NCBI GenBank assembly: GCA_964394645.1
Contig: CAYMYC010000001.1
Span: 479,359 to 543,358, forward strand
Direction: 5' to 3'
From: an uncultured Gammaproteobacteria bacterium
GTDB lineage: Bacteria > Patescibacteriota > Microgenomatia > Levybacterales > GWA1-39-11
Length of the DNA: 64,000 nucleotides
Shown here: in pieces, positions 46,259 to 56,689 of the stretch
Numbering within the stretch: position 1 is the first letter of the stretch
Layout of the letters: every line of letters begins with the position of its first letter
The notes under the pieces: model-generated
The model's database searches: none
What the model saw: only the letters and a program-made list of their open reading frames with translations
What the model was told of the DNA's origin: nothing
Translations under genes and position numbers: made by a program

Positions 46259-46903
46259 TTAGTTAAATCTTCTGATAAGACCCACAACCTTACCTTGTAC
46301 ACGTACAGCTTTTGGATAGATAGGTTCCATGGTGCTATTTGCCGGTTTCAAAATAACTTGTTCACCTTCTTTATAGAATCGTTTTAATGTAGCTAGACTT
46401 TCATCAACTAAGGCAACAACAATATCTCCATTATGAGCAGTTTCAGATTTTTCAATAACCACAAAGTCTCCATCTAAAATTCCGTCTTCTATCATGGATG
46501 TGCCTTTAACTTGGAGAACATAAGAAGTTTTTGTACCTGAAAGCATACTGGAGGCAACCGCAAATGTTGCTTCAGGATCAGTATATGGCTCTAGCGGTTG
46601 ACCTGCAGCAATATAACCCATCAAAGGAAGGGAAATGGACGGACCAAGTGATTTTGAGGTAGGTCCTAGAAGTTTTCCTAGTGACTCTTTTTTTAACACT
46701 TTAAGAGTTCTCAGGTTTCCATCAACTTTTTGGACATAGCCTTTGTCTACCATGGTTCTTATCAAGGCATGAACGGTAGATACGCTTCTTTTTCCAGTAG
46801 CCTGAGCCATTTCTGCCAAAGTAGGGGAGTAGCCATTTTGTTCTTGGAATTGAATAATAAAATTAAGTAACTCCCTCTCTTTTTTATATAATACCGCTGT
46901 CAT
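46259..46903 (-). CDS. lexA: LexA repressor
   Basis: 214 aa. N-terminal winged-helix domain (LTKRERELLNFI-like ...GYSPTLAEMAQATG). C-terminal S24 peptidase domain with Ser in GTSMIEDGI and Lys in the RFYKEGEQVILKP region. Confidence 0.9.
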   Translation of the reverse strand: MTAVLYKKERELLNFIIQFQEQNGYSPTLAEMAQATGKRSVSTVHALIRTMVDKGYVQKVDGNLRTLKVLKKESLGKLLGPTSKSLGPSISLPLMGYIAAGQPLEPYTDPEATFAVASSMLSGTKTSYVLQVKGTSMIEDGILDGDFVVIEKSETAHNGDIVVALVDESLATLKRFYKEGEQVILKPANSTMEPIYPKAVRVQGKVVGLIRRFN

Positions 46904-46983
46904 ACATAATTTATACGAAAATTACTTGAATTTTACAAGATGACAAACAATATCAAAACACCGCATTTTTAGTTTTCAGACGA

Positions 46984-47002
46984 TGTGTTTAGACATGACA
47001 CA
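46984..47002. promoter_or_regulatory. Candidate LexA operator: inverted repeat TGTGT-N9-ACACA
   Basis: The sequence tgtgtttagacatgacaca lies in the divergent lexA/uvrB intergenic region, 22 nt upstream of the uvrB ATG. It was found by eye. The LexA box consensus for this lineage is unknown. Confidence 0.3.
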
Positions 47003-47024
47003 GAATATGGTAAAATTATAGGTT

Positions 47025-54819: not shown

Positions 54820-56044
54820 CGAAAAAAAGATAATTTATATTGGTAAAGCAAAGAATCTTAAAAAAAGAGTTTCATCCTATTTTCAAAAAGGCGCTCATGA
54901 CGCAAAAACTACACATTTAGTAAGCGCTATTAAATCAATAGAGCACACACCAGTAAGCTCTGAAATAGAAGCATTTTTACTGGAAGCAGAGCTTATTAAA
55001 AAGTATAAGCCTTATTATAATATCCGTTTTACTGATGATAAATCTTACCCATATATTATGATTACAACCAATAGTTTTCCTTATGTATCAGTGGTGCGTA
55101 AGATGAATAACAAGAAGGCAGATTATTTCGGTCCATACCCTGATGCAGGATCAGTAAAAACTGTACTTAAAATTTTAAGAAGAATATTTCCTTATCAGTC
55201 GGTTAAAAATCACTCAAAAAGAAAATGCCTGTATTATCATCTGGGACTTTGTCCTTGCCTTCCTGCAGCCCCTGAAAATAGAATCCAATACATGAAAAAT
55301 TTGAGGCTTTTAAAAAGCTTTTTAGGAGGAAAAACGGGTAAGGTTACTGAAGCACTTAGAAAAGAACAAAAACGCAGTATTCAACATGAGGAATTTGAAA
55401 ACGCTTCAAGTATTCAAAAGCAGCTTGACTCAATAAAAAAGATTACTCAAGAGACATTTGATCCATTTTTCTACATATCTACCCCAAATGCGCAAGCCAA
55501 ACGTGAAAAGAATGAAAATGAGAATCTAAAAACTTTGCTTACCAGCTCTGGGCTAGAATTAACCGCTCTTAACAGAATAGAGTGTTATGACATATCAAAT
55601 TTTCAAGGAACAAATGCTACCGGTTCTATGACAGTATTTGTTGATGGAAGCGCTACAACAAGCGAATATAGAAAGTTTAAAATTAAAAAGCTTTCAACAC
55701 CAAATGATTTTGCAATGCATCAAGAAGTAATGGCAAGACGCCTAAAACATACGGAGTGGGGAATGCCTGACCTTATTATAGTAGATGGTGGAAAAGGACA
55801 AGTGAGCTCTGTTTTACAAGTTCTTGCTCATATGAATGTTAATTTCCCTGTCATTGGTCTTGCAAAACGGTTTGAAACTATTATTCTACCTGAAAAAGCT
55901 GGAAAGCAGATTATCTTTAATGAGGTAAGAGTTCCTTTATCAACTCCTGCGCTAAATTTGGTGCGGCGAATACGAGACGAAGCACATCGTTTTGCAATTT
56001 CATATCACAGAACGTTAAGAAGTAAAAAAACATTTACAGATTAG
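54758..56044 (+). CDS. uvrC: Excinuclease ABC subunit C (short form lacking the C-terminal HhH region)
   Basis: GIY-YIG domain [30 protein letters not shown]...[16 protein letters not shown], a UvrB-interacting region and an RNase-H-like endonuclease domain ([10 protein letters not shown]). The ORF in the track starts at GTG 54746. An AGGAGG Shine-Dalgarno at 54741-54746 favours a TTG start at 54758. Confidence 0.85.
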   Translation: [428 protein letters not shown]

Positions 56045-56069
56045 AATCAGTCTGTTAGCATAGAATGTA

Positions 56070-56474
56070 ATGAAGTTTATACTCCAACAGCTTATAATAG
56101 CTATTATCTCTCTTTATCTCACATCGCTTTTTTTCCCTGGACTTGTTATTTCTGGCGGGTTTCCACAACTATTTCTTGCGTCTTTATTTTTAGTTGTAGG
56201 GTTTGTTGTTATACGCCCTTTGATAAATCTTATTACGCTTCCTTTAGGAATTCTTACGTTGGGACTTTTTTCTGTTATTACAACTTCAATAGTTCTATTT
56301 TTAATAACCGTAATCGATCAAAATTTTAATATTGTACCTTTCCCTTTTTCCGGTTTCTCATTTTACGGACTCGTAATTCCTTCATTTTATGCCAATATAC
56401 TTTTGTCTTACATATTAATTTCTGCTACAATACAGGCAGTACAAAAAGTATTGATGTACATATTTGATTTATGA
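56070..56474 (+). CDS. Hypothetical membrane protein
   Basis: 134 aa with four hydrophobic helices. Overlaps the secG start by 4 nt. Confidence 0.45.
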   Translation: MKFILQQLIIAIISLYLTSLFFPGLVISGGFPQLFLASLFLVVGFVVIRPLINLITLPLGILTLGLFSVITTSIVLFLITVIDQNFNIVPFPFSGFSFYGLVIPSFYANILLSYILISATIQAVQKVLMYIFDL

Positions 56475-56689
56475 ATTCAGCATATACAGTTGTCCAGATA
56501 GTGATAGCGGTTTTAATAGTTATCACAATAATTTTACAGACCAGAGGTTCATCTTCTGGAATGGCTTTTGGAGGGGGAACGGAGAGCTATAGAGGCAAGA
56601 AGGGAATGGAAAAAGTATTGTTTTACACAACAATAATTCTTGCTGCTATCTTTGCTCTTATTTCTATTCTGTCTCTCATCAATCAGTAA
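56471..56689 (+). CDS. secG: Preprotein translocase subunit SecG
   Basis: 72 aa with two TM helices flanking a Gly-rich loop (LQTRGSSSGMAFGGGTES). Confidence 0.75.
   Translation: MNSAYTVVQIVIAVLIVITIILQTRGSSSGMAFGGGTESYRGKKGMEKVLFYTTIILAAIFALISILSLINQ

Follow-up and report, generated by a model that had tools for sequence, protein, structure and literature searches.

Excision repair genes and their probable passengers in a conserved gene block of Microgenomates bacteria

Operons composed of uvrB and uvrA are standard in Bacillus and other Firmicutes, and the two genes adjoin one another in a Clostridiales metagenome-assembled genome (MAG; L063). For Clostridioides difficile the phrase "uvrABC operon" has been used (PMC4689574). 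A contiguous set of nucleotide excision repair (NER) genes is therefore not new in itself. Here, we describe such a set in a 64,000-nt stretch of DNA (the window) from GenBank assembly GCA_964394645.1, contig CAYMYC010000001.1, positions 479,359 to 543,358, in which uvrB, uvrA and uvrC lie on one strand, divergent from lexA, and are interrupted by a gene for a diiron desaturase-like protein (X) and a gene for a transglutaminase-like protein (Y). The original prediction for this locus, made from the sequence alone, held that uvr genes are normally scattered in bacterial genomes, which is true of E. coli but, as the examples above show, not universal. We consider it probable that the array is a lineage-typical synteny block, in which ordinary uvrB, uvrA and uvrC genes share transcripts with passenger genes in a compact, slowly rearranging genome. 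X and Y look like long-standing passengers and not like new repair factors.

Genes were called by a six-frame listing of open reading frames (ORFs) together with Pfam and NCBIfam scans of the window. Every ORF, coordinate and the gene order that had been proposed, namely lexA on the minus strand followed on the plus strand by uvrB, X, uvrA, Y, uvrC, a membrane protein gene and secG, was confirmed by these scans (Table 1), supporting a complete canonical UvrA, UvrB and UvrC set on one strand with two embedded non-repair genes. The 121-nt gap between the divergent lexA and uvrB genes is borne out in the sequence, as are the overlap of Y with uvrC and the 4-nt overlap of uvrA with Y, in which a GTGA at 52972-52975 is common to the uvrA stop and the GTG start of Y. 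X had been placed 7 nt after uvrB; the junction is indeed tight, but the intervening bases number 6. The spacer between X and uvrA is 98 nt. The longest uvrC ORF begins at a GTG at 54746 and the Y/uvrC overlap amounts to 62-74 nt depending on the start, with the likely start being the TTG at 54758, which lies behind an AGGAGG at 54741-54746 and is also the start in public gene calls. Downstream, 25 nt separate uvrC from the PF04020 gene, which in turn shares a 4-nt ATGA overlap with secG. The assembly collection has 29 blocks with an identical X protein (23 contigs read), and the neighbours of X are the same in the six independent assemblies that were inspected. Because independent assemblies carry identical X neighbours, the array is not an assembly artefact or chimera, and that explanation is ruled out.

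A search with UvrB against one genome per GTDB species gave best matches of 76-81% identity, the match at 81% being a Candidatus Levyibacteriota MAG, while a long series of Roizmanbacteria, Woesebacteria and "Microgenomates group" MAGs matched at 53-59%. Judged by these similarities, the host is a member of Candidatus Levybacteria (Microgenomates, within the Candidate Phyla Radiation (CPR)/Patescibacteria) with a small genome. Loci L011, L012, L014 and L019, along with many GTDB-representative MAGs, are titled "uncultured Gammaproteobacteria" or "Pseudomonadales" and carry a Microgenomates-type block with a UvrB 54-81% identical to that of the window; going by gene content and similarity, such titles appear to be taxonomically wrong.

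Gene order was compared by tblastn of the window proteins against all fetched loci, with counts taken over those GTDB species loci that have enough flanking DNA. The gene next after uvrB is uvrA in 42 of 45 loci, uvrC lies no more than 5 kb from uvrA in 38 of 39, and Y is next after uvrA in 31 of 39. Y is thereby retained no more often than a functionally unrelated neighbour, the SBP_bac_5 gene found downstream of uvrC (29 of 32), and genes for a TP_methylase and a VTT-domain (DedA-like) protein each lie upstream of uvrB in 28 of 50. Two additional Y homologues that were looked up independently stand in the same arrangement (divergent lexA, then uvrB-uvrA-Y-uvrC), with Y-uvrC overlaps of 41 and 56 nt. 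Because most of the species genomes examined from Levybacteria, Roizmanbacteria and Woesebacteria share the order uvrB-uvrA-Y-uvrC, continuing to the SBP_bac_5 gene, the uvrB-uvrA-(Y)-uvrC array is an ancient and widespread feature of Microgenomates, and because the SBP_bac_5, TP_methylase and VTT-domain genes sit in the same block, gene order is conserved beyond the repair genes. The array is therefore not limited to one assembly. Of the full order seen in the window, however, only uvrB-uvrA-Y-uvrC is widespread, whereas X occupies its slot in a single Levybacteria subclade. There is further variation: uvrA directly adjoins uvrC, with no Y, in six lineages (L024, L049, L054, L057, L059 and L074), a gene for a DUF1189 membrane protein lies between Y and uvrC in three Roizmanbacteria-type loci, and the PF04020 gene is kept downstream of uvrC in many relatives. 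As for lexA, it is the divergent neighbour of uvrB in only 8 of 50 loci, belonging to Levybacteria and a few Woesebacteria-like genomes.

Raw counts from consensus scans of the window were uninformative alone, with 47 promoter-like sites where 40.6 were expected, and 5 terminator-like sites where the expectation was 6.9; promoter sites were kept only if they were also conserved in an alignment of seven Levybacteria loci. Strong comparative evidence points to an independent sigma-70-type promoter for uvrA. The pattern CTTGAAT-18-TATAAT is common to all seven loci, with invariant or nearly invariant hexamers, whether the gene upstream is X, a PIG-L gene, uvrB or a gene on the opposite strand. 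At the other end of the array, a block reading TATACGAAAATTwCTnGAAnTTTACAAG (46912-46939) is conserved at the lexA promoter, and the lexA start codon lies 6 nt beyond the -10 element. Neither lexA nor uvrB has a Shine-Dalgarno sequence upstream, in contrast to uvrC with its perfect AGGAGG, and because the conserved -10 elements in the stretches 46901-46915 and 47008-47027 lie only 6-8 nt from the start codons, the lexA and uvrB mRNAs are probably leaderless. The candidate uvrC promoter inside Y (TTGACA-17-TACAAT) is conserved in 6 of the 7 loci, while the GGAGG and TTGGA of the uvrC start are invariant in all seven. Identity at synonymous codons of Y rises from 0.51 for the whole gene to 0.72-0.76 at the promoter-like site, and reaches its highest values in Y, 0.80-0.91, where the ribosome-binding site and the overlap lie. 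No plus-strand terminator-like site was found in any intergenic spacer between 47025 and 56689, the sole plus-strand match lying inside secG. With no such site downstream, transcription from uvrA-Y is likely to continue through uvrC and the PF04020 gene to secG. The junctions ahead of X and Y are too tight to fit a separate promoter, so X most likely shares a transcript with uvrB, and Y with uvrA.

Table 1. Genes and candidate regulatory sites of the array, and other features of the window
Feature	Position	Strand	Basis and remarks
lexA (214 aa)	46259-46903	minus	Pfam LexA_DNA_bind + Peptidase_S24; divergent from uvrB
uvrB (658 aa)	47025-49001	plus	Pfam; canonical, C-terminal UVR domain
X (331 aa, soluble diiron acyl-ACP-desaturase family)	49008-50003	plus	PF03405 (FA_desaturase_2), E 1e-76
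uvrA (957 aa, class I)	50102-52975	plus	Pfam; UvrB-interaction and DNA-binding insert domains
Y (615 aa, transglutaminase-like)	52972-54819	plus	Pfam Transglut_core, E 5e-16
uvrC (428 aa)	54758-56044	plus	Pfam GIY-YIG, weak UVR motif, RNase H-like endonuclease domain
PF04020 (Phage_holin_4_2 family) four-helix membrane protein	56070-56474	plus	Pfam, E 2e-9
secG	56471-56689	plus	Pfam and TIGR00810
Candidate lexA promoter block	46910-46948	minus	-35 TTGTAA (46933-46938), 17 nt, -10 TATAAA (46910-46915); 7-locus alignment
Palindrome TGTGT-N9-ACACA	46984-47002		Overlaps weak -35 region of uvrB promoter
Candidate uvrB extended -10, TGgTAAAAT	47008-47016	plus	TGTGGTAmAAT conserved across 7 loci; ATG 8 nt downstream
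Candidate uvrA promoter, TTGAAT-18 nt-TATAAT	50013-50042	plus	Consensus scan 10/12; in X-uvrA spacer
Candidate internal uvrC promoter, TTGACA-17-TACAAT	54640-54668	plus	Inside Y 3' end; 11/12, best match in region
Candidate uvrC ribosome-binding site AGGAGG and TTG start	54741-54760	plus	Within membrane-anchor codons of Y
dinB (Y-family polymerase)	59686-60927	minus	Pfam IMS + IMS_C
YdjM/DUF457 gene	25573-26151	plus	ORF and domain scan of window

Together, these features suggest an arrangement in which transcription of the uvrB-uvrA-uvrC array would be divided among nested units, at least two and probably three in number. The first would use the extended -10, apparently leaderless promoter to drive uvrB and X. 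The second would start from the sigma-70-type promoter in the X-uvrA spacer, drive uvrA and a translationally coupled Y, and read on downstream. The third, from the promoter-like site and strong ribosome-binding site in the last codons of Y, would allow independent expression of uvrC, the PF04020 gene and secG. Transcription may also run on from one unit into the next, but a single operon spanning the array is not supported. Y would have been acquired between uvrA and uvrC before Levybacteria, Roizmanbacteria and Woesebacteria diverged, and now appears interlocked with its neighbours, sharing its start with the uvrA stop and hosting the uvrC start signals; because of this interlocking, Y would be hard to lose. 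The uvrB-uvrA junction, by this account, is a slot that has held different cargo over time, including X in one Levybacteria subclade.

The evidence from X fits this description. X matches PF03405 at 258 bits against a cut-off of 22.7, over profile positions 2-324 of 325, and matches structures of plant acyl-acyl carrier protein (ACP) desaturases at E 1e-40 to 1e-44 (best 1e-44, 7PP7). Six diiron ligands (E84, E122, H125, E175, E208 and H211, in the pattern E, ExxH, E, ExxH) are invariant in eight homologues and align with the plant motifs, and X looks like a working enzyme. Its family suggests a soluble, O2-dependent diiron desaturase or oxidase with a putative role in lipid modification. CPR bacteria are generally thought to lack fatty-acid synthesis and to depend on hosts for lipids, and the approximately 56 window ORFs scanned, out of 66 of at least 100 amino acids, include neither an ACP gene nor one for fatty-acid synthesis. 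At the uvrB-uvrA slot, X is present in none of the 45 GTDB species loci and follows uvrB in only five lineages: the window, L007, L009, L010 and L084, the last four with X proteins 82%, 58%, 46% and 60% identical to that of the window and UvrB proteins 94%, 84%, 80% and 68% identical, respectively. X stands directly after uvrB in every locus where it occupies the block, and because this position is kept at X identities of 46-60% and with UvrB identity down to 68%, X is not a very recent insertion. The same slot holds a gene for a PIG-L/LmbE-type deacetylase in L012, L051 and L069, and both X and PIG-L in L009 and L010, the latter also having a 446-amino acid gene, oppositely oriented, that separates PIG-L from uvrA. 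A CAP/SH3 secreted protein is encoded in the slot of L024, a protein closely similar to it by sequence in that of L054, and in most Roizmanbacteria the slot is empty, with a uvrB-uvrA gap of 2-190 nt. A functional tie of X to repair is not supported by this distribution, as X is confined to one subclade and the contents of the slot vary among relatives. In L069 (10133-10451), two antisense ORFs between PIG-L and uvrA resemble the antisense ORF found over the uvrA 5' end elsewhere, which suggests that they are duplicated fragments of the uvrA 5' end.

Outside this subclade, X has only distant relatives. A profile scan of metagenome contigs returned 80 X relatives, all of which, other than L084, are at most 39% identical to X; no homologue from beyond the Levybacteria clade reaches 40% identity to X. 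The loci tested for context have a median G+C content of 56%, and a uvr neighbour is lacking at all 81 other X-homologue loci tested, where identity is at most 39%. Distant X-like genes instead adjoin a gene for an iron superoxide dismutase (Fe-SOD), or genes for ACP and ketosynthase. In L082 (2043-3672), a distant X-like diiron protein, 25-28% identical to X, is encoded divergently from the gene of an Fe/Mn superoxide dismutase, and genes for ComEC and ribosomal protein L28 are found on the same contig, a context that hints at an oxygen-related role for that branch of the family. The X-like protein P0009 and the Y-like protein P0019 come from contigs of equal length (5140), but no transglutaminase-like gene is among those called on the P0009 contig, so linkage of X to Y is not indicated.

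Y belongs to a large family, with at least 2724 proteins at E <= 1e-5 and listed members of approximately 570-650 amino acids. Those homologues that are named by source come from Levybacteria, Levyibacteriota or Patescibacteria, and the family appears to be largely confined to Microgenomates/Patescibacteria. Y matches Transglut_core (PF01841) at 59.4 bits against a cut-off of 23, and its C359-H402-D419 triad (in the motifs AVCLEFTDLF, LHAWPEYYD and MVDPTW) is invariant in a 26-member alignment. The same alignment shows an N-terminal signal-peptide-like segment, a C-terminal hydrophobic helix and a basic tail, KTRSLP.QRRK. An AlphaFold2 model of Y (mean predicted local distance difference test (pLDDT) score 83, predicted template modelling (pTM) score 0.77) places a helix near each terminus (residues 2-17 and 586-607), with two beta-sandwich domains, an alpha/beta core and a C-terminal Ig-like beta domain in between. 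Foldseek matched this model to a putative cysteine protease of Cytophaga (3ISR, E 2e-11), BDI_1141 (3KD4) and the periplasmic domain of TgpA (6G4H), as well as to animal transglutaminases (TG3/FXIII), with the N-terminal half matching the lumenal domain of Ost1/ribophorin I. A search of the PDB by sequence gave one weak match, again to TgpA, at E 0.004. Because of the signal peptide, the C-terminal anchor and the fold matches, Y is predicted to work outside the cytoplasmic membrane and away from DNA. It would be a type I membrane protein whose catalytic domain is exposed at the cell exterior and, like TgpA-type proteins, would probably have cell-wall or surface-protein substrates. MurT/GatD, also encoded in the window (12701-14760), fits a Gram-positive-type wall.

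Several observations weigh against regarding X and Y as passengers. The order uvrA-Y-uvrC survives in lineages whose Y proteins are only 27-38% identical, which in typical bacteria would suggest selection for co-expression, and X has likewise stayed directly after uvrB over the substantial divergence given above. The cargo of the slot is stress-flavoured, comprising a diiron oxidase and a PIG-L deacetylase, with an SOD neighbour for a distant homologue, and points the same way. In addition, we infer the functions of X (lipid) and Y (envelope) from family and fold, and the leaderless starts and transcript boundaries from consensus matches and conservation; as the hexamers of the candidate uvrC promoter lie within coding sequence, their conservation may derive in part from the protein.

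These observations are what an alternative explanation builds upon, according to which X and Y are functionally integrated with repair, being co-induced with the excinuclease to remodel the membrane (X) and the envelope (Y) during repair, as do SOS-induced cell-wall and division proteins elsewhere. In favour of such integration, Levybacteria preserve both the uvrA/Y overlap and the placement of the uvrC start signals within Y, most species genomes retain Y between its two uvr neighbours, X is always found right after uvrB where present, and lexA is the divergent neighbour. The other occupant of the slot, PIG-L/LmbE, belongs to a family that includes enzymes of low-molecular-weight thiol biosynthesis, and the Fe-SOD beside a distant X-like gene is a hint of oxidative stress. 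Against it, the uvrB and uvrA promoters show no conserved operator, Y is predicted to act beyond the membrane, X is missing from most relatives, and six lineages do without Y altogether. Furthermore, the block retains unrelated housekeeping genes (secG, SBP_bac_5 and TP_methylase) to much the same degree as Y. We therefore regard functional integration as unlikely. A more specific proposal, in which the uvr genes and Y, plus X or PIG-L in some Levybacteria, form a selected co-expression module through which repair after DNA damage or oxidative stress would be tied to changes in the envelope and in scavenged lipids, with adaptive interlocked junctions, is doubtful as well. If it were true that X and Y are damage-induced, a coupling of repair to the envelope not described before would be indicated; present evidence favours hitch-hiking.

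It is improbable that uvrB to secG form a single LexA-repressed operon controlled by the palindrome at 46984-47002, as the original prediction had it. The tight uvrB-X, uvrA-Y and Y-uvrC junctions, the absence of terminator-like sites between the genes, the proximity of lexA and the overlap of the palindrome with the -35 region of the uvrB promoter would all be expected of such an operon. However, uvrA has its own conserved promoter, in L010 the opposite-strand gene parts uvrA from uvrB, and the candidate promoter inside Y, with its raised synonymous conservation, would add another point of entry, while the proposed stoichiometric co-expression of X and Y with the excinuclease goes beyond what overlaps of starts and stops can show. 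The palindrome itself fails as a LexA box in footprinting, as it sits in a non-conserved stretch and is absent from L007, L009, L010, L011, L013 and L069, including the relative with a 94% identical UvrB, even though LexA is 87-100% identical across the compared genomes. Alignments of the seven loci revealed no conserved palindrome or operator at the uvrB or uvrA promoters, although a degenerate site may exist there, and no Cheo-type box lies near the cluster: at up to 2 mismatches to CGAAC-N4-GTTCG, the window has 4 matches against 10.9 expected. Lastly, most Roizmanbacteria loci are without lexA beside uvrB, and in two Levybacteria, L012 and L051, the two are separated by a transposase gene of the IS200-like (Y1_Tnp) kind, indicating that the lexA-uvrB adjacency is not rigidly maintained. 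Together with the repeated palindromes on their flanks, which follow the pattern AAGGTTTAACCTT or AAGGTCAAACCTT, these transposase genes (L012, 8381-9064 and 9060-9200; L051, 9144-9830 and 9825-10010) possibly represent a system in CPR bacteria resembling repetitive extragenic palindromes (REP) and their associated tyrosine transposases (RAYT).

A better candidate for a LexA operator lies at lexA itself. The spacer of its promoter, CGAAAATTwCTnGAA, is invariant, exact copies of the pattern occur in relatives only at this site, and because the spacer is as conserved as the hexamers, it is a candidate autoregulatory operator. The nearest second copy of the block in the window (61039-61053) is upstream of dinB with 2 mismatches, and as 1.8 such copies are expected by chance it is suggestive only, a lead and not evidence. 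This copy is enclosed by a promoter-like TTTACT-17-TATAGT. A minus-strand ORF of 20 codons (61020-60960, MLPLLFAKKIIKMYAYWIMN) starts 7 nt after the TATAGT and stops approximately 30 nt short of the dinB start codon; it could encode a leaderless upstream peptide or have arisen by chance. The suggestion that dinB and the YdjM-like gene would fit an SOS regulon thus stands as far as both genes being in the window, but no conserved operator is found at ydjM, no E. coli-type box was found, and the copy at dinB is within chance. The best Cheo-like box of the window, CGAACCTTTGTTCT at 28162-28175 with 1 mismatch, falls in a region of approximately 650 nt (27543-28197) without an ORF of at least 100 amino acids.

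Finally, Rad4/XPC contains an inactivated transglutaminase-homology domain, and Y, with its transglutaminase fold and its place between uvrA and uvrC, could be imagined as a bacterial counterpart of this damage sensor working with UvrA on DNA, but almost no credence can be given to this analogy, which is ruled out by the intact and invariant Cys-His-Asp triad, by the signal peptide and C-terminal anchor that put Y outside the cell, and by best structural matches that are extracytoplasmic enzymes, with no Rad4/XPC or PNGase chain among the Foldseek top 50.

The repair proteins encoded by the array are conventional. LexA (TIGR00498, 180.9 bits against a cut-off of 111), UvrB (NF003673, 969.8 against 743), UvrA (NF001503, 1420.8 against 1147) and UvrC (TIGR00194, 390 against 285) all pass their NCBIfam equivalog cut-offs, and SecG is likewise above its own (TIGR00810). 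LexA has an intact DNA-binding domain and an intact S24 autocleavage domain, UvrB has the Pfam domains UvrB_inter, Helicase_C, UvrB and, at residues 623-658, UVR, and UvrA has UvrA_inter and UvrA_DNA-bind. UvrC has GIY-YIG and UvrC_RNaseH_dom domains, and the UVR motif is matched weakly (PF02151, residues 195-228, E 0.0042, 17.2 bits against a cut-off of 21.5). The 428-amino acid UvrC has no C-terminal tandem helix-hairpin-helix, (HhH)2, domain, with no HhH match even at E 10; the protein ends 14 residues past the RNase H-like domain, and no separate HhH gene lies downstream of uvrC in the window. Short UvrC proteins of 402-428 amino acids are also encoded in L007, L009, L010, L164 and L165. 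As judged from domain content, the repair machinery is an ordinary UvrABC set, minus the canonical (HhH)2 domain of UvrC. Elsewhere, the window (G+C 33-39%, with scattered tRNA genes) codes for DnaE (5113-8328) and a PolX-type polymerase (16369-18153; pol beta thumb and PHP domains), and with DinB is unusually dense in repair and replication genes.

Literature searches returned no report of an association of uvr genes with a transglutaminase or of uvr genes with CPR bacteria, nor of desaturases in CPR bacteria, in keeping with the initial statement that no described NER operon was known to hold a desaturase-like or transglutaminase-like gene. As far as the searched literature shows, three features are new: that Microgenomates keep uvrB, uvrA and uvrC together with Y interlocked between uvrA and uvrC, that a homologue of the plant-type diiron acyl-ACP desaturases exists in a CPR lineage, and that UvrC in these bacteria is without the (HhH)2 domain. 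Their value lies in annotation and evolution, as an example of passenger genes locked into an operon and of a possible lipid-modifying capacity in CPR bacteria.

In comparison with the uvrBA operons of Firmicutes and the uvrABC operon of C. difficile, the locus has the same canonical uvrB followed by uvrA on one strand, but differs in the placement of a 615-amino acid protein gene between uvrA and uvrC that hosts the start signals of uvrC, in the variable cargo (X, PIG-L) at the uvrB-uvrA junction, and in a UvrC lacking (HhH)2. The E. coli SOS regulon (lexA, uvrA, uvrB, dinB and ydjM) is represented in the window by the same gene families, and the conserved block overlapping the promoter of lexA fits autoregulation, whereas neither an E. 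coli-type nor a Cheo-type box is found near the cluster and no operator is conserved at uvrB, uvrA or ydjM. X matches the plant plastid acyl-ACP desaturases (1AFR, 1OQ4 and 7PP7) over its full length and has all six diiron ligands; unlike them, it comes from a CPR bacterium and is located after uvrB. Y shares with TgpA of Pseudomonas aeruginosa and the cysteine proteases 6G4H, 3ISR and 3KD4 a membrane anchor and an extracytoplasmic transglutaminase-like Cys-His-Asp core, and differs from them in its cleavable-type signal peptide, two N-terminal beta-sandwiches like those of Ost1/ribophorin I, an Ig-like domain and a single C-terminal anchor.

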